Shown piece by piece: positions 6,016 to 35,952 of a stretch of DNA of 64,000 nucleotides; position 1 is the stretch's first letter, and each line of letters opens with the position of its first letter. Position numbers and translations under genes: made by a program. This stretch comes from an uncultured bacterium (lineage in GTDB: Bacteria; Verrucomicrobiota; Lentisphaeria; Victivallales; UBA1829): the NCBI GenBank assembly GCA_902780135.1, contig CACZEK010000003.1, positions 65,560-129,559 on the forward strand. Direction: 5' to 3'. The notes under the pieces were generated by a model. That model made no database searches and had not been told where the DNA came from. It was given only the letters and a program-made list of their open reading frames with translations.

Positions 6016-6069
6016 GGGAATGCTTTCTGTTGAGTTTATATGAGTTTGATTGATATGCGGTCGGTCGGT

Positions 6070-8217
6070 TCAGAATGGCGGACCGTCGAGGTCCTTCGAG
6101 AGGGAGCGGATGCGGTCGCGGAGCTGTGCGGCGCGTTCGAATTCGAGCGCCTCCGCCGCCTCGAGCATCTGGGATTCGAGTTCGAGCACGAGTTCGTCGA
6201 TGCTGGCGGCTCCGGTCTGCTTCAGGATCTCCTCGGTCTCGCTCAGCGTGATCGTGTTGCCCTTCATGCCGCGTCCCTTCTTCGCTTTCGCGGGGCGCGT
6301 CTTCATGCCGGTGTGGTAGGGCGCGCCGGGTTCGTGGAAGGTGTAGGCGCGTCCGGAGTTCGAGGCGGCGGGCGCGGAGGCGGTTTCGGGCTGTGTCGCG
6401 CCGATGATCTCGGCGATGGTCTCGCGCGGCGGCTTGATGATGGTGTGCGGCACGATGCCGTGCTCGGCGTTGTAGGCGTTCTGCTTGGCGCGGCGCGCCT
6501 CGGTGGTCTCGATGAGCGCCTTCATGCTGTCGGTCATGTTGTCGGCGTAGAGGATGACCTTGCCGTCGGCGTTTCGGGCGGCGCGTCCGGCGACCTGGAT
6601 GAGGGACCGGCGCGACCTCAGGAAACCTTCCTTGTCGGCGTCGAGGATGGCGACGAGGCGGATCTCCGGGAGGTCGATGCCCTCGCGGATGAGGTTGATG
6701 CCGACGATGCAGTCGAAGTCGCCGCGCCGGAGTTCGTTCAGGATCTTCACGCGTTCGATGGCGTCGATCTCGGAGTGCAGGTATTTCACGCGGATCCCGA
6801 CGTCGGACAGGTAGTCGGCGAGGCGTTCGGAGCTTTTCTTGGTGAGCGTGACGACGAGCGAACGCGCCCCGTCCGCCGCGGCCGCCTTGATCTCCGCGAT
6901 CACGTCGTCGATCTGCGTGGCGAGCGGGCGCACCTCGACCGGCGGATCGAGCAGTCCGGTCGGGCGCACGACCAGCTCGACCACGGCGTCGCCGCACATC
7001 TGCATCTCGTAGTCGCCGGGCGTGGCGGAGACGTAGACGGTGTCGCCGGTGAGCCCGAGGAATTCGTCGAAGGTGAGCGGGCGGTTGTCGAGGGCGGAGG
7101 GGAGCCGGAACCCGTAGTCGACGAGCGTCTGCTTGCGGCTGCGGTCCGCCTTGTACATCGCCTGGAGCTGGGGGAGCGTCACGTGGGATTCGTCGATGAA
7201 GAGCAGGTAGTCCTTCGGCATGAAGTCGACGAGGCAGAACGGGCGGGAGCCGGGCGCGCGGCCGGAGAGGTGGCGCGAATAGTTTTCGATGCCGGGGCAG
7301 TAGCCGATCTCCTTCATCATCTCGACATCGTAGTTCACGCGCTGGAAGAGGCGCTGCGCCTCGACGAGCTTGCCCTGTTCTTCGAAGTTATGCACGCAGG
7401 TCCGCATCTCCTCCAGAATGCCGTTCATGGCGGCGTCGATCTTCTCCTGCGGCAGCACGAAATGGCGCGCCGGGAAGATGAGCGCCTTGCGGCACTGGGC
7501 GATCACGTGTCCGGTCACGAGGTCGCGCCGGGAGAGCGATTCGATGGTGTCGCCCCAGAACTCCACGCGCAGGAACTCCTCCTTCTGCGACAGGAAGACG
7601 TCCACGCAGTCGCCGCGCACGCGGAACTGGCCGCGTTCGGGCGCCATGTCGTTGCGTTCGTACTGGATGGCGACGAGCATGTGGAGGAACTGGTCGCGGT
7701 CGAGCTCGTCCCCGGCGGCGAGGCGGAGGCTCATGGAGTCGTAGTCCTCGGGCGAGGTCAGGCCGTAGATGCAGGAGACGCTGGCGACGACGAGCGTGTC
7801 GCGGCGTTCGAGCAGGGACGCGGTCGCGCTGAGGCGGAGGCGCTCGATGTTGTCGTTGATGCTGGCATCCTTCGCGATGTAGGTGTCGGTCTGCGGGATG
7901 TAGGATTCGGGCAGGTAGTAGTCGTAGTAGCTGATGAAGTATTCGACGGCGTTCGCGGGGAAGAACGCCTTGAACTCGCTGTAGAGCTGGGCGGCGAGCG
8001 TCTTGTTGTGGGAGAGCACGAGCGCGGGGCGGTTCAGCTCGGATTCGAGCAGCTTCGCGAGCGTGAACGTCTTGCCGCTGCCCGTGACGCCGAGGAGCGT
8101 CTGGTGGCGGATGCCGCGGTCGAGGTTCTCCTTCAGCTGCCGGATGGCGTCCGCCTGGTCGCCCGCGGGTTCGTAGTCGGAGACCACGCGGAATATTTCG
8201 CCGGAGTCCTGGATCAT
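6070..8217 (-). CDS. uvrB: Excinuclease ABC subunit B
   Basis: LGVTGSGKT Walker A, HNKTLAAQLY, YDYYLPE beta-hairpin, IDESH, DADKEGFLRS, C-terminal UVR domain (LEFERAAQLRD). Confidence 0.98.
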   Translation of the reverse strand: MIQDSGEIFRVVSDYEPAGDQADAIRQLKENLDRGIRHQTLLGVTGSGKTFTLAKLLESELNRPALVLSHNKTLAAQLYSEFKAFFPANAVEYFISYYDYYLPESYIPQTDTYIAKDASINDNIERLRLSATASLLERRDTLVVASVSCIYGLTSPEDYDSMSLRLAAGDELDRDQFLHMLVAIQYERNDMAPERGQFRVRGDCVDVFLSQKEEFLRVEFWGDTIESLSRRDLVTGHVIAQCRKALIFPARHFVLPQEKIDAAMNGILEEMRTCVHNFEEQGKLVEAQRLFQRVNYDVEMMKEIGYCPGIENYSRHLSGRAPGSRPFCLVDFMPKDYLLFIDESHVTLPQLQAMYKADRSRKQTLVDYGFRLPSALDNRPLTFDEFLGLTGDTVYVSATPGDYEMQMCGDAVVELVVRPTGLLDPPVEVRPLATQIDDVIAEIKAAAADGARSLVVTLTKKSSERLADYLSDVGIRVKYLHSEIDAIERVKILNELRRGDFDCIVGINLIREGIDLPEIRLVAILDADKEGFLRSRRSLIQVAGRAARNADGKVILYADNMTDSMKALIETTEARRAKQNAYNAEHGIVPHTIIKPPRETIAEIIGATQPETASAPAASNSGRAYTFHEPGAPYHTGMKTRPAKAKKGRGMKGNTITLSETEEILKQTGAASIDELVLELESQMLEAAEALEFERAAQLRDRIRSLSKDLDGPPF

Positions 8218-8226
8218 GGTTTCGCC

Positions 8227-9231
8227 TCAGACCTGTTTGCCCTGCATGGCGCTTTCGAGCAGGCGGCACGCGGACTGGTAGCGGCACTTGCGGCACGCCT
8301 CGCGGTTTTCGCAGGGCGGGAAGTCCTCCGGGTGCGCGAGGCCGTCCTTGTCGATGAGCGCGAGCATCTCCGCGCTGCTCCGGTCGATCATGGATTCGAT
8401 GTCCGGCTCGAAGAGGTTGTAGACCACGCTGGAGAGCTCCTGCGAGAAGGTGAACGTGGTGATGTTGACGGGGAATCTTGGGTAGCGCCGGGCGCAGTAG
8501 AGGGCGAAGAGCGAGTTCAGGCGTCCGATGCGGGCGAAGAAATCGGTGTCGCTTTCGCGGTTCGTGAGGCGGACTTCGGCGTTGATGGCGGACGCCGCGC
8601 CGTCGCGGAAATAGATGAGTCCGGGCACGAGCCAGACGGGGAACCCCTTGTAGTCGATGCTGATGAAGACGTCGTCGGTGCGGAGGTCGACGAAGCTGAT
8701 GTTCGCGAGGTCGGCGATGATGTCGGAGCGCGAGAGCATGGCGTAGGCGTCGCCGAGGATGTTGACCGCCATTGCCGTGAGCTTGTCGACGTCGGCGAAA
8801 TCGCCGATCCCGAGGTGGTATTCCAGGATCGCGGGGCGTTTCGCGTCGTAGAGGTATTCGCGATTTTTCAGGCTCATCTGCAGGTCCGCCGTCGCCTTGC
8901 CGATCTGCCGCAGCAGGTAGAACCCGAATCCGCGGCGCTTGTGGCCGGGCGAACCCGCGCTCATCTTGGCGAACGCTTCGCGGATGGAGTCGCGGAGCGT
9001 GTGGGAGAGCCAGGTGTCGAACGGCATCAGGTACTTGCTGAAATACGCCTCGCGGGCGAGCGTGTGGGAATAGGCGTCCCACCCGCCCTGCGCGAGGTAG
9101 TACCGGATGAAATACGCCCGGCGGCAGAACCGGAAGAGGTAGTGCCTGGCGAGGGACCAGGAGAATTCCTCCGTCCGGATCGGCGGGAGCGGCCCGGCGG
9201 CGTTTCTGACTTCCTGTTCGAAATCTCTCAT
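8227..9231 (-). CDS. PD-(D/E)XK (RecB/AddB/Cas4-like) fold protein with Fe-S cysteines, catalytic motifs degenerate
   Basis: N-terminal FSWS..R...F..CRRAYF..Y...GGW; C-terminal CRKCRYQSAC; central VPGLIY...INAEV where xxD...DxK is expected. Confidence 0.6.
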   Translation of the reverse strand: MRDFEQEVRNAAGPLPPIRTEEFSWSLARHYLFRFCRRAYFIRYYLAQGGWDAYSHTLAREAYFSKYLMPFDTWLSHTLRDSIREAFAKMSAGSPGHKRRGFGFYLLRQIGKATADLQMSLKNREYLYDAKRPAILEYHLGIGDFADVDKLTAMAVNILGDAYAMLSRSDIIADLANISFVDLRTDDVFISIDYKGFPVWLVPGLIYFRDGAASAINAEVRLTNRESDTDFFARIGRLNSLFALYCARRYPRFPVNITTFTFSQELSSVVYNLFEPDIESMIDRSSAEMLALIDKDGLAHPEDFPPCENREACRKCRYQSACRLLESAMQGKQV

Positions 9232-9259
9232 GGCGCACCCGAAGAGCGAACGGCGGGGA

Positions 9260-10291
9260 TCAGAACCCCGTGGCGAGGTAGTAGGGGCAGCCCGCCTTCG
9301 GGAGAACGACGTTCGTGCCGGAGAGGAGCGAGTTGAACGTGACGGGCTGCGCCTTCACGCCGAAGAGGCCGAGGAGGTCGGCGAGGGAGGAATTGTTCGT
9401 GAAGCGTTCGATGCGGCAGTTGTCGCGGGTGAGCCCGGCGAGTTCGAGCGCGGCGTCCTCGGCGGTCGTGAAGTAGCCGATCTGGTCCACGAGGCCGTTC
9501 GCGAGCGCCTGTTCGCCGTCGAACACGCGGCCGTCGCCGAGTTCGCCCTGCGTGATCTTCTCAAGCGGGATGTTTCTGGCTTCGGCGACGATGCCCGCGA
9601 ATTCCTTGTAGGCGTCCATGACGAGCGTCTGGACGACCTTCGCTTCCTCTTCGGTGGTGGGCAGCGCCGGGTTGAGCATGGCTTTCATCTTGCCGGAGGT
9701 GTAGAACTCGGGCTTGACCTTCGCCCAGTCGAGGAGCTGGGAGACGTCCACGGTGGAGATGATGACGCCGATGCTGCCGGTCATCGTGAACTTGTTCGCG
9801 ACGATCTTGTTCGCGCCGCAGGCGACGTAGTAGCCGCCGCTCGCCGCCAGCGTGTTCATCATGGCGACGACGGGCTTGCCGCAGAGCTTGAGCTCGTGGT
9901 AGATCTCGTCGGACGCGGTGACTTCGCCGCCGGGAGTGTCGAGGTCGATGATGATCGCCTTCACGCTGTCGTCGTCCTTCGCGGCGCGGATGAGCTTGAC
10001 GATCTGCTTGGAGTTCGCGATGAGGGAGCCGAAGGAGTCGGAGTCGCTCGTGATCGTGCCCTTCACGTCGATGACGGCGATGCGGTTCTCGGCGTCCTCG
10101 TTTCCGCTGATGAACTCGGCGGTGTAGTCGGCCGAGGCGCCCTTGAGCGCGGTGCCGCTTTCGCCGATCATGCCGATGATGACGCCCGAGACCGTGAAGA
10201 GGGCGATGAAGCCGAGGAAGCAGACGAGGATGAAGATGGCGAACGCGATCAGGCAGCCGCGGAGAAATCCGCCGGAGGAGTTGGAGCTCAT
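9260..10291 (-). CDS. sppA: Signal peptide peptidase SppA (S49), 36K type
   Basis: IDLDTPGGEVTASDEIY, AASGGYYVA, TGSIGVI, GKMK, DGRVFDGEQA...GLVD. Confidence 0.93.
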   Translation of the reverse strand: MSSNSSGGFLRGCLIAFAIFILVCFLGFIALFTVSGVIIGMIGESGTALKGASADYTAEFISGNEDAENRIAVIDVKGTITSDSDSFGSLIANSKQIVKLIRAAKDDDSVKAIIIDLDTPGGEVTASDEIYHELKLCGKPVVAMMNTLAASGGYYVACGANKIVANKFTMTGSIGVIISTVDVSQLLDWAKVKPEFYTSGKMKAMLNPALPTTEEEAKVVQTLVMDAYKEFAGIVAEARNIPLEKITQGELGDGRVFDGEQALANGLVDQIGYFTTAEDAALELAGLTRDNCRIERFTNNSSLADLLGLFGVKAQPVTFNSLLSGTNVVLPKAGCPYYLATGF

Positions 10292-10345
10292 GGTAAGTGT
10301 TCCTTTCTGGTGTTTTTTGATATGGTCAAACTGTTGCGGTTTTCG

Positions 10346-11314
10346 TTACGAGTTGCGGGGTGCGGCTTTTTCGATCCGCATCGCGTCCCGGATGCGGAGC
10401 GCTTCCTCTCGGCCGAAGTCCGCGGCGTACTGCTTCAGGCAGCTCGCGCACGCGGCGGCGATCCCGGTCGTGAAGGCTTTCAGCGGATCGGCGCCCGCGA
10501 GGAGCTCGGAGAGCATGACGCCGGAGCAGACGTCGCCCGCGCCGATGGGATTGCACACGCCGTCGAGCGGCGGGATGAAGATGCGGTGAAGCGCATTGTC
10601 CCAGGCGATAAACGCACGGTCCGGTCCGTCCGTGATGGCGGCGCACCGGAGCGGATACCGGTTAAGCAGGGCGAGCGCGGCGGCCTCGGGATCGGACGCT
10701 CCGGTCATGGACAGGAGTTCGCCGCTGTTGATCTTCAGATACTGCACTCCGGCGGCGAGCGTTTCGCCGAAATGCTCCACGGAATCCATCAGGACGGGCT
10801 TGTTCTGGCGGACGGCCTCCTTCGCGAGCGCGGCGTAGAAACCGTCCAGCGGGCCTTCCGGGAGCGTGCCGCAGAGCGCGAGCGCGTCGGCTCCGGGGAG
10901 CGCGGACAGGATGCTGTTTTTCAGGAACTCCGCGTCGTCCGGCGTGACGGACGGCGGCGGTTCGATCAGTTCGGTCATGCAGGCGGTTTTCCTGCCCAGG
11001 ACCGTGGTGCAGCAGCGCGTTTCGCCCCGGATTTCCCGGCTGACGAATCCGATGCCCTCCTGTTGAAGCCATTCTTCAAGGTCGTGTCCGTTTCTGCCTC
11101 CAGCGAACTGGTAGACGACGGGTTCGGCTGTCCCCCAGGTGCGGACGGCGCGGGCGAAGTTCACGCCTTTGCCGGACGCCCGGCAGTCGCGCTCCTTCGC
11201 GCGGTTGACTTCGCACGGACGGAATTCGTCGAAGACAAGCGTTTTCTGCCAGGACGGATTCGGGCCGCAGACGAGGATCGCGGGGAGGTTTTTCGGGGAG
11301 GATGCCGGCGTCAT
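10346..11314 (-). CDS. PfkB-family carbohydrate kinase (1-phosphofructokinase/tagatose-6-phosphate kinase-like)
   Basis: NPSWQKT, SGKGVNFARA, LKINSGEL, NPIGAGDVCSG PfkB signature. Confidence 0.88.
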   Translation of the reverse strand: MTPASSPKNLPAILVCGPNPSWQKTLVFDEFRPCEVNRAKERDCRASGKGVNFARAVRTWGTAEPVVYQFAGGRNGHDLEEWLQQEGIGFVSREIRGETRCCTTVLGRKTACMTELIEPPPSVTPDDAEFLKNSILSALPGADALALCGTLPEGPLDGFYAALAKEAVRQNKPVLMDSVEHFGETLAAGVQYLKINSGELLSMTGASDPEAAALALLNRYPLRCAAITDGPDRAFIAWDNALHRIFIPPLDGVCNPIGAGDVCSGVMLSELLAGADPLKAFTTGIAAACASCLKQYAADFGREEALRIRDAMRIEKAAPRNS

Positions 11315-13038
11315 GGCAGGGTGCCCTCCGTCCGGGCGGAGCCGTCCGGACCGGACGCCGTCCCGGGACGCGCCTGTTCAATTTCCATGATCTTCCGTTC
11401 GCGGGCGTTTTTTGATTCCGGCGCCAGCGGTCCGATGTCGGTGCTGTAGACGTTGAGCGCGCCGTCGTAATTGCCCTCTTCCATGAGGCGGGCGGCTTTT
11501 GCGTTCAGGGATTCCATGAGCTTCTCCACGGCCGCGTCGGATGCCTTCTTGAGTTCCGACATGATCTCCATCGCTTCCCTTTGATACGCCTCGGACGACG
11601 TGAAGGTGTCCAGGTCCTCAATGGCTTTTTTGAATCCGAATCCGTCCTTCAACGCCTGCGCGGCCGCCTTCTTCGCCTCTTCGAAGAGGACGGATGCCTG
11701 CGAGTCGATGCTCTCGCCGCCGATCGTGATCTCCGCCTGGAGCGCCTTCGTGGACGGACGCGGGTTCTGGAGGGACGCGGTCCCGCCGGGATCGGGTTCG
11801 ATGCCGGGCACGGCGTCCTGCATGGACGCCGGTGCGGGCCGAGGCGTTTTCGCGCGCTTTTCCGCCCTGTCGCGTTCCATCAGGACCAGCAGCCCTGCGC
11901 CCGCCAGGATCAGCAGTGCGAGCACGGCGGCGATGACGGGGAGGATCGCGGGGCGGCGCCCCGCGCCGGTATTGGCGCACAGGACCGGCGTCCTGACAAA
12001 CGGGACCGCGCCGCAAGTGGTCGAGGGAAGCGGTTTGTCCGCGAGGAACGCCTCCAGGTCCGCGAGCAGTTCTTCCGGGGTGCTGTAGCGTTCGTCCGGG
12101 CGTTTCTGGATGCAGTGCATGACGATGTAGTCGAAGTCGATCGGGATGCCGTGCACGTATGTGCTGGGGACGAGCGGTTCGACGGAGATGTGCATGTGGC
12201 GGAGCTCGGAGCGGGTCTGCGTTTCGAACGGCAGGCGTCCGGCGGCGAGCTGGTACAGGGTCACGCCGAGCGAATAGATGTCCGAACGGACGTCGCAGGA
12301 TTCCGTGTCGATGTACTGTTCCGGGGACATGTATTCGAGCGTGCCGAAGCTCGTTTTGCGCGCCGTTTTCACGGGGTCGTTTTCATCCAGGACGCATGCC
12401 CCGTTTTCGGCGGCGGACGACGCGTCGAGTTTGGCGAGGCCGAGGTCCGTGAGCTTGTACTTCCCGTCGGCGGAGAGCATGATGTTGTCCGGCTTGATGT
12501 CCCGGTGCACGATGCCGAGCCCGGCGGTCACGGCCAGTGCGCGGCAGACTTCGGCTCCGATCTCCGCCGCTTCCTTCGCGCCGAGGAATCCGTCCTTCAG
12601 CATGCGGTCCGCCAGCGAGCCGCCGGAGAGGAACTCCATGGCGAGGAACGGAACGCCGTTTGCGTCACGCCCGGTCTCGTAGACCTTCACGATGTTCGGA
12701 TGGACCGCTTTCGCATAGATCTTCGCCGCGTGGAGGAAGCGTTCGCGGGACGGCCTGTCCGCGGCGTATTCCGGGAGCAGGGTCTTGACCGCCACGGGGA
12801 TGCCGAGTTCGGGGTGGATCGCCTCGTAGACGCAGTTCATCGCGCCGCGCCCGATATAGCGCACGACGGAATACCGTCCGATGGATTCCGGCGGCGGGAG
12901 GTCCGGCAGGGAAAACTCCTCCACGACGGTCGAGTCGTCGATGCGGAACGTGGCCTGGCAGGCGCAGACGGCGATCCTCCCATGTTCGACATGGGGGATC
13001 TCGCTGATTCTCATGCACTGCGGACAACGTATCTTCAT
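11311..13038 (-). CDS. Hanks-type Ser/Thr protein kinase with N-terminal Cys cluster, one TM and an extracytoplasmic helical tail
   Basis: IGRGAM, VAVK, HRDIKPDN, TDLGLA, GTLEYMSPEQ, SDIYSLG; TM ILPVIAAVLALLILAGAGLLVLM; N-terminal CPQC...CAC. Confidence 0.92.
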   Translation of the reverse strand: MKIRCPQCMRISEIPHVEHGRIAVCACQATFRIDDSTVVEEFSLPDLPPPESIGRYSVVRYIGRGAMNCVYEAIHPELGIPVAVKTLLPEYAADRPSRERFLHAAKIYAKAVHPNIVKVYETGRDANGVPFLAMEFLSGGSLADRMLKDGFLGAKEAAEIGAEVCRALAVTAGLGIVHRDIKPDNIMLSADGKYKLTDLGLAKLDASSAAENGACVLDENDPVKTARKTSFGTLEYMSPEQYIDTESCDVRSDIYSLGVTLYQLAAGRLPFETQTRSELRHMHISVEPLVPSTYVHGIPIDFDYIVMHCIQKRPDERYSTPEELLADLEAFLADKPLPSTTCGAVPFVRTPVLCANTGAGRRPAILPVIAAVLALLILAGAGLLVLMERDRAEKRAKTPRPAPASMQDAVPGIEPDPGGTASLQNPRPSTKALQAEITIGGESIDSQASVLFEEAKKAAAQALKDGFGFKKAIEDLDTFTSSEAYQREAMEIMSELKKASDAAVEKLMESLNAKAARLMEEGNYDGALNVYSTDIGPLAPESKNARERKIMEIEQARPGTASGPDGSARTEGTLP

Positions 13039-16446: not shown

Positions 16447-16929
16447 TCAGGCGGGTGCCGTGTTCGATTCCGCCGATGCCGTTGAACCGGCGACGGAAAC
16501 GGCCTCCGTTGTCCGCGACGGGGAAAGCGCGGCGACCGTCAGGCACGCCGCCGCGCGGGAGTCAGGGCAGTCCAGCAGGCGGAACGACTCCGGGATGAAC
16601 ACGACGTCGCCGGACTGAAGTCCGTCCGGCGGAAACAGTTCCTGCAGGGCGTCGAATCTGCCGAGCGCGGCCGCCGTGCGGGCGTCGTCGGATCCCGCCA
16701 GCAGGTCGATGAGGATCAGGTGGAACTGCTGGCGCCGCGTGAGCGTGCTGTCCGTGTAGATCCCGTCGCCCGCGAGGACGAGCACGCACGGCGGCCTGAG
16801 CCCGGCGGGCATGGATTTGCCCTGGACCGCCAGTTCCGGCGTGCTCGCCGAGGCGAGTCCGACGGCGGGAAACGAGGTCGCGACGAGCGTTTTCAGCGTG
16901 TTCGCGATAGTGAGCGTGGCTTCGGTCAT
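16447..16929 (-). CDS. Phage-like protein, possibly Mu gp37/tail-terminator fold
   Basis: 160 aa; ATGA overlap with the portal stop; pattern of N-helix, PCVLV strand, F.L.LID strand and helix, compatible with tail-completion proteins. Weak recognition. Confidence 0.4.
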   Translation of the reverse strand: MTEATLTIANTLKTLVATSFPAVGLASASTPELAVQGKSMPAGLRPPCVLVLAGDGIYTDSTLTRRQQFHLILIDLLAGSDDARTAAALGRFDALQELFPPDGLQSGDVVFIPESFRLLDCPDSRAAACLTVAALSPSRTTEAVSVAGSTASAESNTAPA

Positions 16930-18164
16930 GGACGCACCTCCGGGGCGGGATCGGTTTCGGCGCGCGTGAGCGAAAGCCCGAACCGGGCGGAAAGCTCCGC
17001 GGGATCGGCGTCGAGGCCCGCGCGATGGAGCGTTTCGACGATGCCCGCGAAGACGGCGCGGTCTTCCTGCGCGGAGTTGCGGAATTTCAGGACCGGCGCG
17101 GCCGCCGCGTCGCCGAAATTGAACTTGGTCCACGGGACGGCGAGCTGGGTGCGGATGGTCGATTCGATCGCGCGGGCGTCGGCTTCCAGCAGGTCGCCGC
17201 GGACGCGGGACTGCGCGTCGCCGCCGGAAAGCCCGCCCGATTCGGACGAGCTGGCGAGCTGGCCGAGGATGACTTTCGTGATCGCTTTCGAGGTGTATTC
17301 CAGAAGCTTGAAATACACCTCGCCGCCCGAGTTCGACGCCTGCAGGAGTTCCAGCTCGGTCGACTTCGTGAACACGCCGCCGCCGTTCGGCCCGAAGCTG
17401 CGGATCAGGTTCCGCATCACCCCGCGTTCATTTTCCCACGCGCTGCGGTCGACTTTCGCCACCACGAACGGCATCCCGTAGCGTTCGACGAACGACACGA
17501 GGTCCTTCACCGGATAGTTCTGGAACACGTGCAGCCAGATCAGCGTCCGGATCAGCCCGGCGCGCGCCGGGTCGCCCGCGCTGCCGTGCGTGTGGACGAT
17601 GAACTTCGCCGGGGGCAGGGGGACGCCCGCGCGGTCGTCGTCCGTCACGAGGAGCGGCGTCTCCGAGTTGCGGAACGTGAAATGCCAGGCGCCCACGGGA
17701 CGGAATCCCGCCAGGTCGCCGCCCGCGCCCCAGATGATCTCGGCGGCGGACAGCGGCGCGATGACGGCGTCCATCAGGTGGTCGGCGAGTTCGTGGAACG
17801 ACGCCAGGCCCGGCTCGGAACCGGATGCTTTCAGCGCGGCTTCGAACGCCTGCGCGGCGTCTTTCGATGCCGGACGTCCGTCGCCGGGTTCCACGCCCCA
17901 GTCGAGCCCGGTCAGCGCGCTTTTCCGCACCTGCATCGCCAGGATGACTTCCCAGTTGCGTTCCTGGATCTCCCGGGCGGCGACGGCGAGTTCCGCGATG
18001 TCGCCCTCGTTCGCGGCCTCCAGAATCCGCGAGACGTTCGCCGGCGTGTATTCGGAGCTTTGGAGCCAGCGGCTGCGTTCTCCGGGGGCGGCTGCGGTCC
18101 AGCGCCCCGGGGCGGGGATGCCGTCGTTTCGGGCGGCGGTTCGGACGGAATGGTTCAGTTTCAT
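16926..18164 (-). CDS. Mu-like phage portal protein (gp29/DUF935 family)
   Basis: YTPANVSRILEAANEGD...MQVRKSALTGLDWGVEP, GLIRTLIW, FVERYGMPFVVAK, ITKVILGQ; 412 aa from ATG 18164. Confidence 0.85.
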   Translation of the reverse strand: MKLNHSVRTAARNDGIPAPGRWTAAAPGERSRWLQSSEYTPANVSRILEAANEGDIAELAVAAREIQERNWEVILAMQVRKSALTGLDWGVEPGDGRPASKDAAQAFEAALKASGSEPGLASFHELADHLMDAVIAPLSAAEIIWGAGGDLAGFRPVGAWHFTFRNSETPLLVTDDDRAGVPLPPAKFIVHTHGSAGDPARAGLIRTLIWLHVFQNYPVKDLVSFVERYGMPFVVAKVDRSAWENERGVMRNLIRSFGPNGGGVFTKSTELELLQASNSGGEVYFKLLEYTSKAITKVILGQLASSSESGGLSGGDAQSRVRGDLLEADARAIESTIRTQLAVPWTKFNFGDAAAAPVLKFRNSAQEDRAVFAGIVETLHRAGLDADPAELSARFGLSLTRAETDPAPEVRP

Positions 18165-18198
18165 GATCGGAATCCTTATGGTTTGAGGTTGAAGAGCA

Positions 18199-18834
18199 TT
18201 ACTGCGGTTTGACGCCGAGGAGCGAGGACAGACGGTCGGCGACCTCGGCTCCGTCCACGCGGGACCATTCGTCCCGGCGGCGGTCCAGCAGTTCATTGTA
18301 CTGCATCCGGGCGCGTTCGAGCGCCTCGCGCAGGCGGACGTTTTCTTCGGACAGCGCGGCGACGCGTTTCCGCAGGACGGTGTTCTGTCCGTCCGAAACG
18401 GATTTCGACAGCGTGACGGCCGAGCGGACGAGGCGTTCGATCGTCTTCGGGTCGTCGGTCGTGGCGTCGGTGCATTCCCGGACGAGCTTCAGCAGGTCGA
18501 TCTTGAGTTCCTCCGCGATGGCGCTCGTCGCCTCGCAGTCGCGGAGCAGTGCGGCGGACAGCCGAACCTCCTCGTACGCCCGGTGTACCTTTTCCCGTTC
18601 TTCGGCGATGGTCTTGAACTCGCGTGTGGCCCTGAACCGCGTGACGGCACCCGCCGTCAGCGTCATGCCGAGCGAACTCAGCGTTCCCGCCACTTCGGGA
18701 TTGCCGAGCACCGCCTGGCTCGTCGCGCCTTCGAGGAGCAGGCATGCGATCCGGTAGCGGAGCCGGAACGGGAGGCGTCCGAACTGGGAAGGCGGTTTTG
18801 TTTTCTGTTTCTTTTGCTTTTCGGGCAAGCCCAT
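18199..18834 (-). CDS. Mu gp27/DUF3486-like protein (putative small terminase)
   Basis: N-terminal SQFGRLPFRLRYRIACLLLEG resembles the S-K-I-x-x-L-P-x-x-x-R start of DUF3486; helical with a coiled-coil C-terminus; AGGAGG RBS; upstream of the portal. Confidence 0.55.
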   Translation of the reverse strand: MGLPEKQKKQKTKPPSQFGRLPFRLRYRIACLLLEGATSQAVLGNPEVAGTLSSLGMTLTAGAVTRFRATREFKTIAEEREKVHRAYEEVRLSAALLRDCEATSAIAEELKIDLLKLVRECTDATTDDPKTIERLVRSAVTLSKSVSDGQNTVLRKRVAALSEENVRLREALERARMQYNELLDRRRDEWSRVDGAEVADRLSSLLGVKPQ

Positions 18835-30588: not shown

Positions 30589-33180
30589 ATGAGCAGACCC
30601 CCGAAACAGCGTTCCCCCGAGGACTTCGGCGAGAAGAACATCACGCCGATGATGAAGCAGTATCTGCAGGCGAAGGCGGAATCCCCCGCCGACTCCATCC
30701 TGCTCTTCCGCGCCGGCGATTTCTACGAGATGTTCTTCGAGGACGCCCTCCGCGCCGCCCCGATCCTCGACCTCGTCCTGACCCACCGCGCCAACAACCC
30801 CATGTGCGGCGTGCCGTACCGCGCCGTCGACGCCTACATCCCGAAACTGCTCGACGCCGGGCTGAAAGTCGCCGTGGCGGAGCAGATGGAGGACCCCGCG
30901 CTCGCAAAGGGCCTGGTCCAGCGCGCCATCACCCGCATCATCACGCCCGGCACCATCCTCGACGCGTCGTTCCTGAAGCCCGGCGACAACAACTTCCTCT
31001 GCGCCGTCGTGGCGGAGGACAAGGACGTCTACGGGCTCGCCTGGCTCGACATCAGTACCGCCGAGTTCCAGACCGAACGCCTCGACTCCCGCGAAGCCTT
31101 CGAAAGCGAACTCCAGCGCCTCCAGCCCCGCGAATGCCTCATCCCGCGTTCCCTCTGCGACCAGTGGGAGCAGACCGGCGGACGCCCCGTGCTGATCCGC
31201 CCCATCCTCTGGACCCCGCTCGACGACTGGATCTTCTCCTTCGAACACACCTCCGAACTCCTGAAACGACAGTTCTCCGTCGCCGTGCTCGACGGCTTCG
31301 GGCTGAAAGACTGCGCGTGCGGCGTCCGCGCCGCCGGAGCCGTGCTGCACTACGCCGCCGAAAACCTCCGCCGCAGCACCGGCCACATCGTCTCCATCCG
31401 CCGCAACTACAGCGAAAAATACCTCGGGCTCGACCCCGTCTGCCAGCGCAACCTGGAGCTCGTCGACGCGCTCCACGGCGGCGGCCGCGAGGGCACGCTC
31501 CTGCAGGTCCTCGACCGCACCGCCACCGCCATGGGCTCCCGCCTCATGCGCAGCTGGCTCCTGAAGCCGCTCCGCGACGTCGACGCGATCGTGGAGCGCC
31601 AGGACGTCGTCGGGCTGATGAAGGACGAGGTCCTGACCCGGCAGGAGATCCGCGAGACGCTCCTCTCCATCCGCGACATGGAACGCCTCACCGCCAAGCT
31701 CAACGCCGGCGCGCTCACCCCGCGCGACCTGCTCGCGCTCGGACACAGCCTCTCCGTCCTGCCCGGCCTCAAGATGATCCTGAACGCCTACGACCTGCCG
31801 CTCGTCGAACGCATCCGCGACGGCCTCGGCGACTTCCCGGAGCTCACCTCGCGCATCTTCGCCGCCATCGCCGACGATCCCCCGGCGGACATGGCGGAGG
31901 GCGGATTCATCCGCGAGGGCTTCAACCACGACCTTGACGTCTTCCGGTCCGCCATCACCGACGGCAAATCCTGGATCGCCCAGCTTCAGGCGAAGGAGCA
32001 GGAGCGCACCGGCATCAAGAGCCTGAAGGTGCATTTCAACGGCGTCTTCGGCTACTACATCGAGATCTCGAAAAGCAACCTCGCGCGCGTCCCCGACGAC
32101 TACGTCCGCAAGCAGACGCTCGTCAACGCCGAACGCTTCATCACGCCCGAGCTCAAGGAGATGGAAAGCAAGATCCTCGGCGCGTCCGACAAGGCGGTCT
32201 CCCTCGAAAAACAGCTTTTCGACGAACTCCGCACCTACGCCCGCACCTTCACCGGAGAGATCCAGAAGGCCGCGTTCTCCGTCGCCCGCCTCGACGTCCT
32301 CGCCGCCCTCGGCGAATGCGCCTCCAAATACCGTTACTGCCGCCCGCACGTCGCGGACGACGACGTCCTCCACATCGTCGCCGGACGCCACCCCGTGCTC
32401 GACGCCCGCATGGAGTCCGAACGCTTCGTGCCGAACGACACGCTGCTCGACGGCGCGGACAACCGCATGATGATCATTACCGGCCCGAACATGGCGGGCA
32501 AATCCACCTACATCCGCCAGACCGCCCTCCTCGTCATCATGGCGCAGATGGGCTCCTTCATCCCCGCCGACGAGGCGCACGTCGGGCTCGTGGACCGCGT
32601 CTTCACCCGCGTCGGCGCCATGGACGACCTCGCGCGCGGCCAGAGCACGTTCATGGTCGAGATGATTGAGACCGCGAACATCCTGAACCACGCCACCAGC
32701 AAGAGCCTCGTGATCCTCGACGAGATCGGACGCGGCACCAGCACGTTCGACGGACTTTCCATCGCTCTCTCCGTCGCCGAATATCTCCTCGACCATCCGT
32801 CCTCGCGCGCACGCACCCAGTTCGCCACCCATTACCACGAGATGACCGAGCTCGCCCTCACGCGCAAGGGCGTGAAAAACTACAACGTCGCCGTCCGCGA
32901 ATACGGCGATCAGATCATCTTCCTGCGCCAGATCGTCCCCGGAGCCGCCGACAAGAGCTACGGCATCCACGTCGCGAAGCTCGCCGGGCTCCCCAACGAC
33001 GTGATCGTCCGCGCCCGCGAAATCCTCGAAAACCTCGAGGAAAACGCCATCGCCGATGCCGGGATGCCGTCCTACACGCGCCCCATCCTCCGCGAACGCC
33101 ACGCGAAATTCCACACGAAAAAGACGCGCAGGACCGCGCCGGACGAGGACGACGAGCCCGAACAGCCCACGCTCTTTTGA
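30589..33180 (+). CDS. mutS: DNA mismatch repair protein MutS
   Basis: TPMMKQY, GDFYEMFF, ITGPNMAGKSTY, STFMVEM, DEIGRGTST, SYGIHVA. Confidence 0.98.
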   Translation: MSRPPKQRSPEDFGEKNITPMMKQYLQAKAESPADSILLFRAGDFYEMFFEDALRAAPILDLVLTHRANNPMCGVPYRAVDAYIPKLLDAGLKVAVAEQMEDPALAKGLVQRAITRIITPGTILDASFLKPGDNNFLCAVVAEDKDVYGLAWLDISTAEFQTERLDSREAFESELQRLQPRECLIPRSLCDQWEQTGGRPVLIRPILWTPLDDWIFSFEHTSELLKRQFSVAVLDGFGLKDCACGVRAAGAVLHYAAENLRRSTGHIVSIRRNYSEKYLGLDPVCQRNLELVDALHGGGREGTLLQVLDRTATAMGSRLMRSWLLKPLRDVDAIVERQDVVGLMKDEVLTRQEIRETLLSIRDMERLTAKLNAGALTPRDLLALGHSLSVLPGLKMILNAYDLPLVERIRDGLGDFPELTSRIFAAIADDPPADMAEGGFIREGFNHDLDVFRSAITDGKSWIAQLQAKEQERTGIKSLKVHFNGVFGYYIEISKSNLARVPDDYVRKQTLVNAERFITPELKEMESKILGASDKAVSLEKQLFDELRTYARTFTGEIQKAAFSVARLDVLAALGECASKYRYCRPHVADDDVLHIVAGRHPVLDARMESERFVPNDTLLDGADNRMMIITGPNMAGKSTYIRQTALLVIMAQMGSFIPADEAHVGLVDRVFTRVGAMDDLARGQSTFMVEMIETANILNHATSKSLVILDEIGRGTSTFDGLSIALSVAEYLLDHPSSRARTQFATHYHEMTELALTRKGVKNYNVAVREYGDQIIFLRQIVPGAADKSYGIHVAKLAGLPNDVIVRAREILENLEENAIADAGMPSYTRPILRERHAKFHTKKTRRTAPDEDDEPEQPTLF

Positions 33181-33292
33181 TGTTTGCATCCTTTTTGGGT
33201 GAAATGTTTCATCCTTTTCTTGATTTTGCGCCGTTTTTGTGGTATGTTTACATGCCCCTGACGAATCGGAAATATCTGAAAAACGGTGTATT

Positions 33293-34318
33293 ATGAACGA
33301 AAATCCCGGCAAGGAAACTAGTCCTGCAAAGAAGAAGCGCGGCGGCAACCGCGTGATAATCATTGTCCTTGCGGCTTGCCTTTTTTGCTGGCTTGCAGGC
33401 GTTTTTTTTCTGTTTAACTGTTTCCGCACCAGCTACAGACGCGTGCAGGAGTATGCCGACACCTATCAGCTGATCGTGCTTCTTGATGACGCGGTCCGGC
33501 AGTACAAACTTGATGTCGGGACATGCCCGTCCTCACTCCAGGGACTGCTGGAGAATATCGACCACGCCGAAAAATGGGACGGCCCCTACCTCAAACCGGC
33601 GCTTCCGCGTGACCCGTGGGGCAACGAATTTCATTATGTCTTCCCGGGAGAGCACGGCGAATTCGATATTTTCTCGCTCGGCTCCGACGGAAAGGAAGGC
33701 GGCGGGAGAAAAGGCGAAAGAATGGAACCCCGGAATCTGGCGGGCGATCTCGGCAACTGGGATATTGTGGAATGGAGGAAAGAAACGACCCCGTCCTTTT
33801 ATGATTTCGAGCTTGTCACGTGGGACGGTCAGGTCATCCGGACTGCCGACCTCAAGGGCAAGGTCGTGCTCGTGGTGAACACGTCCATGACCGACGTTTT
33901 TACGCCTCAGTATGCCCGTCTTGAGGAGATTTACAGGAAATACCGCGACAAGGGCTTCGAAATCCTGGATTTCCCCGGCATCCAGTTCACTTCGAGGCGG
34001 CCCGGGACGCAGTTTTCTCCCCGCAATGCGGATGTCCATTCGTTCCGCACGTCCCGTTACGGCGTGACGTTCCCGCAGATGGCGAACTCGGGTTCGGAGT
34101 TTCCCCCGCTTTATTCGTCGTTCCTCGGCCTGCCCCAATGGTACTTCACGAAATATCTCGTCGGCCGTGACGGCAAAGTCGTTCGGTGTTTCGCGCCGGA
34201 CCCGATCTACAATCCCGCCGACACCATGGACGAACTCGAACGCTGCATCCAGTCCCTGCTGGACGCCCCGCCCCCCGCCGCGGAGGATGCGGAACCGCCC
34301 GGACCCGAGGCGAATTGA
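33293..34318 (+). CDS. Fusion of a GspG-like pseudopilin domain and a glutathione-peroxidase-like domain lacking catalytic Cys
   Basis: WDGPYL...PRDPWGNEFHYVFPGEHGEFDIFSLGSDG...GNW (GspG) followed by LKGKVVLVVNT....FTPQY...YRDKGFEILDFP..QF...WYFTKYLVGRDGKVV (GPx). Confidence 0.85.
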   Translation: MNENPGKETSPAKKKRGGNRVIIIVLAACLFCWLAGVFFLFNCFRTSYRRVQEYADTYQLIVLLDDAVRQYKLDVGTCPSSLQGLLENIDHAEKWDGPYLKPALPRDPWGNEFHYVFPGEHGEFDIFSLGSDGKEGGGRKGERMEPRNLAGDLGNWDIVEWRKETTPSFYDFELVTWDGQVIRTADLKGKVVLVVNTSMTDVFTPQYARLEEIYRKYRDKGFEILDFPGIQFTSRRPGTQFSPRNADVHSFRTSRYGVTFPQMANSGSEFPPLYSSFLGLPQWYFTKYLVGRDGKVVRCFAPDPIYNPADTMDELERCIQSLLDAPPPAAEDAEPPGPEAN

Positions 34319-34527
34319 CCGTCCGCGCCGATCATTGGCGAGCCGGACAACCCGTCCAGTCCCGATTATTCTTTTTTTCGAAAAAAACGGTTTTCCCTCT
34401 TCTTTTTTTTCCGGTTTTGCGGTATAATATAGCCTGCCGGAGACGATCCGGCATGTTTCCGCCATTGATCCGGCGTCCTCCCGCCCCCCGCCGGAGAAAT
34501 CGGAAACGCAACGCGAGGAGAAAAACG

Positions 34528-35817
34528 ATGAAACGCCGGTCCGCCCTGATTCCGTTCCTGTTCTGCTTCGCGCTTTGCCTGACGGCGGCAAATCCCCTTT
34601 TTGCGGAATCCCTGCTGGACGTCGTCGAGGCGGCGCAGGCCACCATCCTGAAAAAGTACCCAAGCAAGGATTCCCTTGCCCGGAAGATTGCGCTGGAGGA
34701 GCTCGAAAAGATCGCACGGAGCGGCGAAACGGACGAGCAGATCATGGAAGCCCTGCTGGAAAAGTTCCCGGAGACTTCCGCCGAACTTTTCGCCAGATCC
34801 GACCGGAATTCCAACGGCGTCCCGGACGAGTGGGAGAAGAAGTTCAAAGTCTCGCCCGGTTTCACTGCCCCCGAATCCGACGAGGATTCCGACGGATTCA
34901 ATCTGCTGGAGGAATACAAGGCGGGCACCGATCCGGTCGATCCGCTCAGCCATCCGAAGTATGTCACGCGGATTTGCGTTTCCAACGTCATTCACCGGCG
35001 CATCGACGGCCTGAAATTGGCTTTCGTCGACATGATGGGGAAGACAGGCCCGTTACCCGACAAACGCGACTGGACCGTCTCGTTCAATGTGATCCGAAAC
35101 GGAAGAAAGAGAACCGAATTCGCGGGCATCGGAAGAGGTGCGTTTAAGAGCAGCGATATCGCCTTTGCCGTCACTGACATTGAGATTGACGACAAGACGC
35201 AGGAACCGGTCGTCTATCTTCAGCGCGTCGGGAAAAACGAACGCATCCCATGCCGCCCCAAACGTCCGGTGTATGAACCTGTTCCGCAAGTGAGGTTTCT
35301 TGATTCCCTCAACGGCCGCACGATCCTTTCCCCGATTGGTGGCAAGTTCAAACTCGGTTCGAAAAAGACAGGGGAAGAGGTGTATAAAGTCGTCTCCATG
35401 GATTCCGGCACGAAGACCGCCGTCGTCGAATCCGTCGGAGAAGCCCCGGAAACGTTCAGGATCCAGCCTGTCCCGAACAGGCTCCCCGCGGCAAAGGCCC
35501 CCGCCCCTGCGAAACCTGTCGCAAAAACTCCGGCGAAACCCGCTGCGAAGTCCGCTGAAAAGGGGCCGGTGAACCTTTCCGTATATGCGAAGCAGGCTGA
35601 GGTGAATATTCTGACAAGACAACCCGTGTTTGCGGGATTCGCCGCGCCGTTCAAGGCGCCGGAGAAACCCGCCGCTCAGCCTGCCGCAAAAAATGCCGCT
35701 CGACCCTCTGCGAAGACCGTCACGAAATCTTCGCCCTTGAAAAACCTCACGTCTTCCAGGATCAAGGCTCCGGCGAAATCTTCACGAGTTTCCGGGAAAG
35801 GATCCGGGAAGAAATAA
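34528..35817 (+). CDS. Exported Amuc_1099-like pilus-system protein with P/A/K-rich tail
   Basis: Signal peptide; NSNGVPDEWEKKF...DEDSDGFNLLEEYKAGTDPVDPLSHP, a Ca-binding-like motif I recall from Verrucomicrobia Amuc_1099-type proteins. Confidence 0.6.
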   Translation: MKRRSALIPFLFCFALCLTAANPLFAESLLDVVEAAQATILKKYPSKDSLARKIALEELEKIARSGETDEQIMEALLEKFPETSAELFARSDRNSNGVPDEWEKKFKVSPGFTAPESDEDSDGFNLLEEYKAGTDPVDPLSHPKYVTRICVSNVIHRRIDGLKLAFVDMMGKTGPLPDKRDWTVSFNVIRNGRKRTEFAGIGRGAFKSSDIAFAVTDIEIDDKTQEPVVYLQRVGKNERIPCRPKRPVYEPVPQVRFLDSLNGRTILSPIGGKFKLGSKKTGEEVYKVVSMDSGTKTAVVESVGEAPETFRIQPVPNRLPAAKAPAPAKPVAKTPAKPAAKSAEKGPVNLSVYAKQAEVNILTRQPVFAGFAAPFKAPEKPAAQPAAKNAARPSAKTVTKSSPLKNLTSSRIKAPAKSSRVSGKGSGKK

Positions 35818-35834
35818 GCGGTCTGTTCATCCCT

Positions 35835-35952
35835 CCCGTGTCCGGGCGCAGCCGGACACTGCTCCGTCCAGGACTTGTCCTGGGCCGTCGCGGAGCACGG
35901 CATTACCCAAGTGGAGGACTTGTCCTCCCGGGCGCAGCCGGACACTACCGCA
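35835..35952. repeat. Composite REP/BIME-like element (modules A and C, TACCCAAGTG linker)
   Basis: GTGTCCGGGCGCAGCCGGACAC 35838-59 and partial copy 35928-45; CCAGGACTTGTCCTGG 35868-83; GGAGGACTTGTCCTCC 35913-28. Confidence 0.75.

Follow-up and report, generated by a model that had tools for sequence, protein, structure and literature searches.

A pseudopilin GspG head joined to a glutathione peroxidase fold with an altered active site in Victivallales

What is a protein that joins the head of a secretion-apparatus subunit to a peroxidase fold, and what may it do? This question is raised by a gene at positions 33293–34318 (+) of a 64,000-nucleotide (nt) stretch of DNA from an uncultured bacterium of the Victivallales (contig CACZEK010000003.1 of assembly GCA_902780135.1, positions 65,560–129,559), which was analyzed at its full length and is referred to as the window. 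A first-pass annotation, made from the letters of the window, had described the gene as a pseudopilin (GspG-like) domain fused to a catalytically dead glutathione peroxidase (GPx) domain. The gene is a single continuous open reading frame (ORF) with its ATG at 33293 and its stop codon at 34316–34318, coding for 341 amino acids (aa). The encoded protein consists of two extracytoplasmic domains on one hydrophobic anchor at its N-terminus, and it is neither a standard pseudopilus subunit nor a thiol peroxidase. To judge by the literature searched, the domain architecture and the pseudoenzyme subfamily are both new.

A basic tail and one transmembrane (TM) helix are followed by the GspG head and then by the GPx fold, each of these two being complete. 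Pfam domain T2SSG (PF08334) was found on residues 58–139 (E = 2.3e-24; 85.9 bits, cut-off 21) and Pfam domain GSHPx (PF00255) on residues 169–264 (E = 2.7e-17; 62.7 bits, cut-off 27). Among proteins with solved structures, the sequence matches yeast Hyr1/Gpx3 (3cmi, E = 2e-20) and EpsG from Vibrio (3gn9, 4lw9, 3fu1; E about 5e-17). Together with hydropathy, these matches bear out the first-pass description of one continuous ORF with a TM anchor, a GspG domain, and a GPx domain. An AlphaFold2 model, proposed in that annotation as a check and built with an 84-sequence alignment, reproduces both domains (mean predicted local distance difference test, pLDDT, 84.5; predicted TM-score, pTM, 0.63), with low confidence only at residues 140–150, at residues 230–240, and in the tail. 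In this model, one continuous helix covers residues 18–75 (58 residues, resembling the pilin-like "lollipop" stalk), followed by the β-sheet head of GspG and by a confidently modeled GPx domain (residues 168–324). The two complete domains are joined precisely end to start: in P0034, which carries the same head (see below), the T2SSG head ends with NWDITDWE, and GPx homology in the fusion begins at Ser167/Phe169. The junction, which had been placed near 33770–33800, could be refined to residues 157–167 (Table 1). In the literature searched, we found no description of a T2SSG plus GSHPx architecture or of a Cys-to-Asp GPx family, which agrees with the first-pass statement that no such architecture had been described; fusion proteins are already present, unannotated, in public metagenome data.

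All motifs quoted in the first-pass annotation had been read correctly (Asp for the peroxidatic Cys, FPGIQF, and WYFTKY in the GPx domain; PRDPWGN...GNW in the head). Relative to the GPx consensus, VNVASKCGFTPQY is changed to VNTSMTDVFTPQY, that is, the peroxidatic Cys to Asp201 and Gly to Val; FPCNQF is changed to FPGIQF, with Gln231 kept; and WNFTKF is changed to WYFTKY, which converts Asn to Tyr284. We tabulated 245 GPx-like domains. All 30 family members combine Asp with Tyr (as WYF), a combination that none of the 215 other homologs shows; of these, 209 have Cys plus Asn, and WNF is present in all 215. A family-wide conserved cysteine column is absent from a 17-sequence alignment, the best column being Cys318 in the C-terminal helix (15/17). 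Because Cys is replaced by Asp and Asn by Tyr, and because no cysteine is conserved throughout the family, thiol-peroxidase chemistry is, judged from the sequence, excluded, and the claim that the domain is dead as a thiol peroxidase stands. The strict fixation of Asp and Tyr suggests that the site still matters.

A Foldseek search with the C-terminal domain retrieved poplar GPx5, human GPX7/GPX8, and other GPx proteins (E about 1e-14; TM-score 0.76–0.85, normalized by target length). With the Cys-type GPx proteins (yeast Gpx3/Hyr1, poplar GPx5, BtuE-type) the domain has in common the fold (TM-score about 0.8, normalized by target length), 30–47% sequence identity, and the recognizable motifs VVLVVNT, GFEILDFP, YGVTFP, and W-x-FTK. 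It differs from them by Asp in place of Cys, by Tyr in place of Asn, by a resolving-Cys block that is not conserved, and by a score of 87.7 against the NCBIfam GPx equivalog model (cut-off 270). GPX8 resembles the fusion, in the topology predicted for it, in being a type II membrane-anchored GPx fold that faces an oxidizing compartment. Human GPX7 and GPX8, protein disulfide isomerase (PDI) peroxidases resident in the endoplasmic reticulum, are among the best structural matches of the fusion domain (3cyn, 3kij, 2p31); unlike the fusion, they keep the peroxidatic Cys, are enzymes, and lack any pilin-like domain, and only the fold connects them to it in evolution.

The Asp/Tyr pseudo-GPx domains appear to form a tiny family confined to the Victivallales. 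A domain-profile search of 1.84 billion representative proteins retrieved three family clusters only (P0029, P0032, and P0002, with 293–333 bits), and canonical Cys-GPx proteins scored 190 bits or less, a gap which sets the family apart; the 299.5 bits of P0232 are due solely to its three canonical GPx repeats. Three clades can be distinguished, which have in common Asp at the peroxidatic position and WYFTK. Clade A consists of the window protein, P0001, P0002, and the frameshifted P0009 (motifs NTSMTD[VL]F and FPG[ITF]QF). Clade B, with a longer loop, is represented by P0003–P0007 and by the proteins from loci L001 and L007–L009 (NTATDDLF and FPDLRA), and clade C by P0010–P0031, proteins of about 375 aa (NTSTDDLF and FPCEPF). 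Neither clade B nor clade C has kept the tetrad Gln. The window protein carries all family features (Asp, WYFTK, FYDFELxTWDGQ, GFEILDFP, and the C-terminal PADxxDxLE helix).

The clade C proteins, which are either unannotated or named "redoxin domain-containing protein", resemble the fusion in their pseudo-GPx domain (about 57–60% identical), in the Asp/Tyr substitutions, in having an N-terminal TM anchor, and in the C-terminal PADxMDxLE helix motif. They differ in that the TM helix is followed by an N-domain apparently unrelated to GspG (no Pfam hit; hhalign probability 13% against GspG), in their locus, and in a tandem stand-alone copy of the N-module. The idea that this N-domain is a cryptic GspG head, and the pairing ancestral, found no support in the Pfam and hhalign results; an AlphaFold2 model of the N-domain (pLDDT 56) was unusable. 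Because clade C bears a different N-module, we regard the pseudo-GPx domain as a portable C-terminal module, which apparently occurs on at least two unrelated TM-anchored N-modules, each also existing alone. P0032 consists of a signal sequence plus the pseudo-GPx domain alone. The family, conserved in more than 20 clade C proteins, is older than the fusion.

At the clade C locus L004, the pseudo-GPx gene (10001–11119) is overlapped by 4 nt by a gene for a 175-aa protein (9477–10004), which is a stand-alone copy of the clade C protein's own TM helix plus N-domain and thus a tandem duplication; the two genes are probably translationally coupled. Other multidomain arrangements are seen in P0232 (531 aa), where a lipoprotein signal precedes the three canonical GPx domains in tandem, and in P0235 (1038 aa), where the second of two GPx domains is devoid of the Cys (VASRDPEA).

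According to sequence comparison, the N-terminal half is paralogous to GspG, the major pseudopilin of the lineage itself, and is devoid of the FTLIE motif and of the α1N helix that are needed for pseudopilus assembly. A search with the head alone retrieved genuine 140-aa major pseudopilins from Lentisphaeria, some of them named GspG by NCBI, with about 65% identity. The head motif reads PRDPWGN...PGEHGEFDIFSLGSDG...GNW; the alignment with calcium-bound Vibrio EpsG extends to the last residues of EpsG (...DIGNW) and suggests that the calcium-binding loop is retained (Asp132, Asp152). The long α1-like helix is a further common trait, and the N-terminal half is colinear with true GspG throughout (KKKRGG-NRVIIIVLAACLF versus RRRVT[P/L]-FTLIEVVVVIVIL in 78 Lentisphaeria GspGs). 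Unlike GspG, the fusion has no class III signal peptide, lacks Phe1 and Glu5 (KKKRGG-NRVIIIV versus RRRVTP-FTLIEVVVV), and has Arg at +2. It further differs by a 9-residue calcium-loop insertion and a 175-residue C-terminal extension, by its location outside a gsp operon (mutS and a methyltransferase gene are the flanking genes), and by a sub-cut-off score against the GspG equivalog TIGR01710 (66.9 bits, cut-off 88.85), which matches the head only (profile positions 41–126 of 134). Neither EpsG nor Lentisphaeria GspG has residues aligned with the insertion, which coincides with the low pLDDT at residues 140–150 and occurs in two allelic versions, one in the window and L007, the other in L001, L008, and L009. 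In all 78 canonical Lentisphaeria GspGs (within P0122–P0201), the residue directly before FTLIE is Pro (69) or Leu (9) and not the usual Gly; either the site rules of the prepilin peptidase differ in this lineage or cleavage occurs elsewhere.

Column identity across the fusion alleles is 0.98 in the head, 0.84 in the TM helix, and 0.75 in the stalk, versus 1.0 in the α1N helix of true GspG (n = 78). FTLIE/α1N has thus been replaced by a fast-evolving generic TM helix, the reverse of the conservation expected for a filament subunit, and for this reason we do not consider the fusion to be one. The maximum Kyte–Doolittle 19-residue mean (2.9) is at residues 21–39, with a net positive N side (+6/−2). 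Because of hydropathy, the positive-inside charge distribution, and the long N-terminal helix in the model, the TM helix is predicted to be a signal anchor with N-in/C-out topology, the domains facing the periplasm. Loss of FTLIE/α1N has probably also removed processing by the prepilin peptidase. The fusion is most likely an unprocessed membrane anchor; here the alignment with the 78 GspGs and hydropathy support the first-pass annotation, which had noted the missing prepilin site.

The same head was encountered in two other contexts. In P0121 (159 aa), encoded at another locus, the anchored head stands alone; this protein lacks FTLIE and has the same loop insertion. In P0034 (333 aa), the head is at the C-terminus of a SEL1-repeat protein with a lipoprotein-type signal. 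In this lineage, the GspG head therefore also serves as a module beyond the pseudopilus. P0121 was also considered as an allele from the same locus, which is ruled out by its different upstream gene.

The full-length fusion is found in 3 of about 185,000 species-representative genomes among the matches listed (RUG12414, RUG11954, and Victivallales Tb.RUG.336), a figure that refers to the full-length fusion only and does not extend to clade C genomes. All three are metagenome-assembled genomes from the rumen, assigned to Lentisphaerota, Victivallales; the fusion also occurs on several metagenome contigs. At least nine assemblies, independent of one another and produced in different studies (L001–L003, L007–L009, L087–L089), share the same junction; they represent two allele clades. 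This rules out a misassembly or a strain-unique chimera, possibilities under which the first-pass annotation would have been withdrawn. That annotation had also entertained a recent chimera or a degenerating fusion; neither agrees with the occurrence in two allele clades and with the low ratios of nonsynonymous to synonymous substitution rates (dN/dS, ω) in the domain cores (0–0.16 for the GspG core). Conservation in relatives, on which it had asked for data, was found: the gene order xseB-mutS-fusion is constant in all fusion-bearing loci, though the fusion itself is strain-variable.

The alleles diverge more than their surroundings. Between the window and clade B, MutS is 96–98% identical and the downstream methyltransferase about 93%, with only 71–74% identity for the fusion. 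By NG86 estimates for the window versus clade B alleles, the mutS background has a synonymous divergence (dS) of 0.19–0.22 with ω of 0.06–0.09. Values for the fusion differ by segment: dS is 0.15–0.25 with ω of 0.56–0.88 for the N-terminus plus TM helix, 0.22–0.34 with 0.42–0.48 for the GspG part (residues 46–163), 0.68–1.0 with 0.11–0.16 for the GPx core at residues 168–228, 0.43–0.51 with 0.97–1.23 for residues 229–282, and 0.34–0.58 with 0.15–0.28 for the GPx core at residues 283–325. The amino acid identity between the clades is 43–46% in segment 229–282, where pLDDT is about 60 at residues 230–240. Within clade B, ω is 0–0.09 for the GspG core, 0.03–0.16 for the GPx cores (with one value of 0.57, which results from six substitutions), and 0.16–0.43 for segment 229–282, which is therefore constrained inside an allele type. 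Overall, ω of the GPx cores is 0.03–0.33 in most comparisons, and the fast parts of the gene are the TM helix (0.56–1.7) and the stalk (0.36–0.96). Both cores are under purifying selection. Sliding nucleotide identity is 0.96–1.0 in the head core, 0.67–0.80 in the TM helix and stalk (0.93–0.99 in the flanks of these), and 0.3–0.6 in the GPx loop region. Patches are shared among otherwise different alleles, that of the calcium loop being common to the window and L007 only. This patchy identity points to recombination of old allelic types plus fast change in the anchor, the loops, and the tail.

Two of the about eleven alleles are broken, P0008 by the in-frame loss of the first half of its GPx domain and P0009 by a frameshift, its C-terminus being equal to the +1-frame ORF 33912–34067 of the window. 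These breaks could be real decay or assembly errors.

The features of the fusion gene and its surroundings are listed in Table 1. An alternative start codon, GTG at 33239, was rejected, as all homologs and gene calls begin at the ATG (MNE[NP]P...) and the GTG is inside a promoter-like stretch. The fusion ATG is separated by 112 nt from the stop codon of mutS (30589–33180). A hairpin plus T-run, listed by the scan tool, is found 3' of mutS at 33197–33214. The promoter-like string (TTGATT-N17-TGGTATGTT) agrees with the consensus at 8 of 12 positions and is unlisted because the scan threshold is 9 of 12. A box resembling that of the fusion (GGTATAATATAGC) is also found 5' of the downstream gene and of P0121.

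Table 1. Coordinates of the fusion gene, its parts, and adjacent features in the window
Feature	Position	Strand	Residues	Remarks
Possible own promoter	33220–33248	+		TTGATT, 17 nt, TGG-TATGTT (extended −10-like); tentative, read directly from the DNA
Complete fusion coding sequence	33293–34318	+	1–341 plus stop	Protein P0001 98% identical; same gene calls in other assemblies
Basic tail, predicted cytoplasmic	33293–33352	+	1–20	MNENPGKETSPAKKKRGGNR; charges +6/−2; position of a prepilin leader, not followed by a G/FTLIE site
Single TM helix	33353–33415	+	21–41	VIIIVLAACLFCWLAGVFFLF; in place of pseudopilin α1N
Helical stalk, predicted periplasmic	33416–33517	+	42–75	Equivalent to pseudopilin α1C; fast-evolving
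GspG globular head	33518–33760	+	76–156	Complete to terminal ...GDLGNW; Asp132 and Asp152 of the calcium loop kept
Calcium-loop insertion	33707–33733	+	139–147	RKGERMEPR, 9 residues; absent from true GspG
Inter-domain linker (fusion junction)	33761–33793	+	157–167	DIVEWRKETTP
GPx-fold (thioredoxin-fold) pseudo-peroxidase domain	33794–34267	+	168–325	
Asp at the peroxidatic Cys/Sec position	33893–33895	+	201	Codon GAC
Variable GPx segment	33977–34138	+	229–282	Former catalytic loop, Cys-block region, and helix α2; discrete allelic types
Catalytic-tetrad Gln	33983–33985	+	231	Codon CAG; kept in clade A only
Trp and Tyr of WYF	34139–34144	+	283, 284	Codons TGG TAC; tetrad Trp kept, tetrad Asn now Tyr
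C-terminal tail	34268–34315	+	326–341	Pro/Ala/Glu-rich, variable, predicted disordered
Neighbor gene, Amuc_1099-family paralog	34528–35817	+		429-aa secreted protein; 209 nt downstream of the fusion

The region between mutS and the methyltransferase gene (33181–35944 in the window) is a hypervariable islet, the gene set of which differs among relatives with MutS at least 96% identical. In L001 and L008, it contains the fusion only. The fusion is accompanied by three tandem membrane paralogs in L007 and by a sulfatase-family membrane protein in L009. In L095, the islet carries an Amuc_1099-like gene plus HicAB, and in L091, genes for a 344-aa protein, a SUKH/SMI1_KNR4-family protein, and an Amuc_1099-like protein. 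The fusion is thus an accessory, recombining gene of a presence/absence islet and not a housekeeping component. The gene for the 344-aa protein from L091 was considered as a diverged fusion and dismissed, there being no similarity. The three tandem paralogs of L007 (7356–9525; about 216–275 aa) share a C-terminal Y-x-EEHG-x-YP...LLETL pattern, which is reminiscent of the pseudopilin α1C/YP motif; they match no significant Pfam family. PADLOC gave no hit for the fusion, the neighbor, clade C, or the islet genes tested, and an assignment to anti-phage defense was therefore dropped. A phage origin was likewise dropped, as PHROGs has only the generic GPx family and a scan of IMG/VR returned only two weak generic GPx matches.

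The neighbor protein matches the NCBIfam model "Amuc_1099 family pilus-like system protein" (Amuc_1099_fam) slightly below its cut-off (44 bits versus 50; E = 2e-11). It has a thrombospondin-type-3-like acidic motif and an Ala/Pro/Lys-rich tail, and more than 100 homologs were found in Lentisphaeria. One of these, P0458, is encoded in the cluster Amuc_1102-like/PilM/541 aa/P0458/879 aa/secretin (L093, L094). The neighbor gene always follows clade A fusions (window, L087, L089, and, partially at a contig end, L088) and is absent from clade B loci. It is the sole genomic hint that ties the fusion to a pilus-type machine, and this hint is confined to clade A. In P0473 (664 aa), a SEL1-repeat protein is fused to an Amuc_1099-like region; P0034 and P0473 suggest that this lineage shuffles pilus-related heads as modules.

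The 64-kb window contains no other GspG-like or prepilin-motif ORF, no other pilin or GPx gene, and, among the large ORFs, no secretion machinery. A gene about 15 kb upstream of the fusion (16926–18296, −) matches a Mu-type portal protein (PF06074, E = 3e-70), which suggests a prophage or prophage remnant. Three very large ORFs (2344–6033, 6040–9336, and 9230–11449; 739–1223 aa), the first of them strand-ambiguous, match no Pfam family at E ≤ 1e-5.

What, then, may the fusion do? We consider it somewhat probable that it serves, without catalysis, as a binding or adaptor protein in the periplasm, tethered to the inner membrane. The protein would be bitopic, with a basic cytoplasmic tail, the TM helix, and the stalk, and with the GspG head and the GPx-fold domain in the periplasm; it would stay in the inner membrane unprocessed and act by binding rather than by thiol-peroxidase catalysis. 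A periplasmic ligand or partner protein would be held by the remodeled pocket of Asp201, Trp283, and Tyr284 (plus Gln231 in clade A) together with the allelic loops. The TM helix and the GspG head would keep the pseudo-GPx module at the inner membrane, where the head may dock on GspG-interacting parts of a type II secretion system (T2SS) or of a pilus-like machine of the Amuc_1098-1102 type. From the binding or adhesin module of the first-pass annotation, binding is thus retained as the most reasonable inferred role; a protein held at the inner membrane is unlikely to be an adhesin. An association with a pilus or T2SS, which that annotation had also brought up, found no support in gene content, the Amuc_1099-like neighbor in clade A being all that points there.

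Several points weigh against this view. The binding role is argued by exclusion, and a new catalytic site would account equally well for the invariance of Asp and Tyr. The N-in/C-out topology is a predicted one, and cleavage by the prepilin peptidase may be possible, given the Pro or Leu at −1 in GspGs of this lineage. The gene is dispensable: equally close relatives (L091 and L095, MutS 96.3–96.5% identical) do without it, and two alleles are broken, as described above. No T2SS or pilus machinery, other pseudopilin, or prepilin motif was found within 10 kb in relatives (L001). An obligate pairing of the fusion with the Amuc_1099-like neighbor is unlikely, as each is found without the other. 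The elevated ω in the TM helix, stalk, and loops may reflect relaxed constraint rather than adaptive diversification.

If the GPx fold is still an enzyme, it would perform non-thiol chemistry at Asp201/Tyr284/Trp283; its substrate would be in the periplasm or the membrane, and the GspG head would be a mere spacer. Had the site simply lost its function, one would not expect fixation of these particular two residues (Asp and Tyr), and they are invariant over three clades despite differing surrounding loops, with ω as low as 0.03–0.16 at residues 168–228; however, the literature searched holds no precedent for Asp-based catalysis in a GPx fold, the tetrad Gln and the adjoining loop vary between the clades, and close relatives manage without the gene, which is why we rate this as improbable. 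An extension that encompasses both possibilities is to see in Asp201/Trp283/Tyr284 a newly evolved site, either for non-thiol catalysis or for binding of a ligand or partner, on a portable module that Victivallales would have grafted onto different membrane-anchored heads; the GspG copy would here target the T2SS or an Amuc_1098-1102-type machine, and the protein would serve as a strain-variable secretion regulator or adaptor. In this detailed form, the proposal is speculative and unlikely. Chances are slimmer again for a dedicated membrane-anchored secretion chaperone or adaptor of the LipB/Lif/CpaB kind, which would hand the neighbor or another exoprotein to the T2SS or pilus-like machine via the GspG head. 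The thioredoxin fold is a common chaperone scaffold, and clade A alleles always precede the gene for the same secreted 429-aa protein. Membrane-bound T2SS chaperones are anchored by an N-terminal TM helix, have most of their mass in the periplasm, and are encoded beside their secreted client (PMC4713064), and the predicted topology of the fusion matches that of this class. Lif/LipB and CpaB share with the fusion, as predicted, the N-terminal TM anchor and a periplasmic binding domain and, in clade A only, the adjacent gene for a secreted protein (PMC4713064); they differ in fold (helical in Lif, SRPBCC in CpaB) and have no sequence or fold relation to it. Moreover, clade B lacks such a neighbor, neighbor homologs occur in the same islet without the fusion, and in the window the two genes have apparently separate promoter-like boxes and a gap of 209 nt.

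That the protein is nevertheless a true (minor) pseudopilin or pilin, processed and incorporated into a T2SS pseudopilus or a pilus-like fiber with the GPx fold as a cargo or tip module, we regard as very unlikely. Pilins with extra C-terminal domains exist, and the colinearity with GspG, the basic leader, the Gly-Gly before the hydrophobic helix, the 58-residue α1-like helix of the model, the kept Asp residues of the calcium loop, and the unusual −1 residue in the lineage's own GspG could all be read in this way. On the other side are the missing Phe1 and Glu5, the Arg at +2, and a helix which is among the fastest parts of the gene and is invariant (as α1N) in real GspG; the TIGR01710 match is below cut-off and limited to the head, and there is no gsp or pil operon around the gene. 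We give least credence to a non-functional recombination leftover on its way to loss, or an assembly artifact. The narrow distribution, the presence/absence pattern among close relatives, the broken P0008 and P0009, and ω near 1 in several segments would fit, but the same junction recurs in independent assemblies, both cores have ω ≤ 0.33 in most comparisons with dS up to 1.0, which speaks for long survival under constraint, and the pseudo-GPx family with its many clade C members predates the fusion. The dN/dS and multi-assembly data largely refute this explanation.

The narrow distribution and the dispensability of the gene limit its immediate impact. If an inner-membrane-tethered binding or adaptor protein is the correct reading, a major pseudopilin would have become a stationary membrane anchor by a swap of its assembly helix alone, and a peroxidase fold could turn into a non-thiol module that is conserved and marked by an invariant Asp and Tyr. 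It would also mean that gut bacteria of the Planctomycetes–Verrucomicrobia–Chlamydiae (PVC) group shuffle pilus-related heads (T2SSG, Amuc_1099-like, SEL1 fusions) in hypervariable islets. With about 30 sequences in three architectures, the family is tractable for studying the origin of a pseudoenzyme in the GPx fold, and it may open a way into the secretion and pilus-like systems of Lentisphaerota, which are poorly understood.

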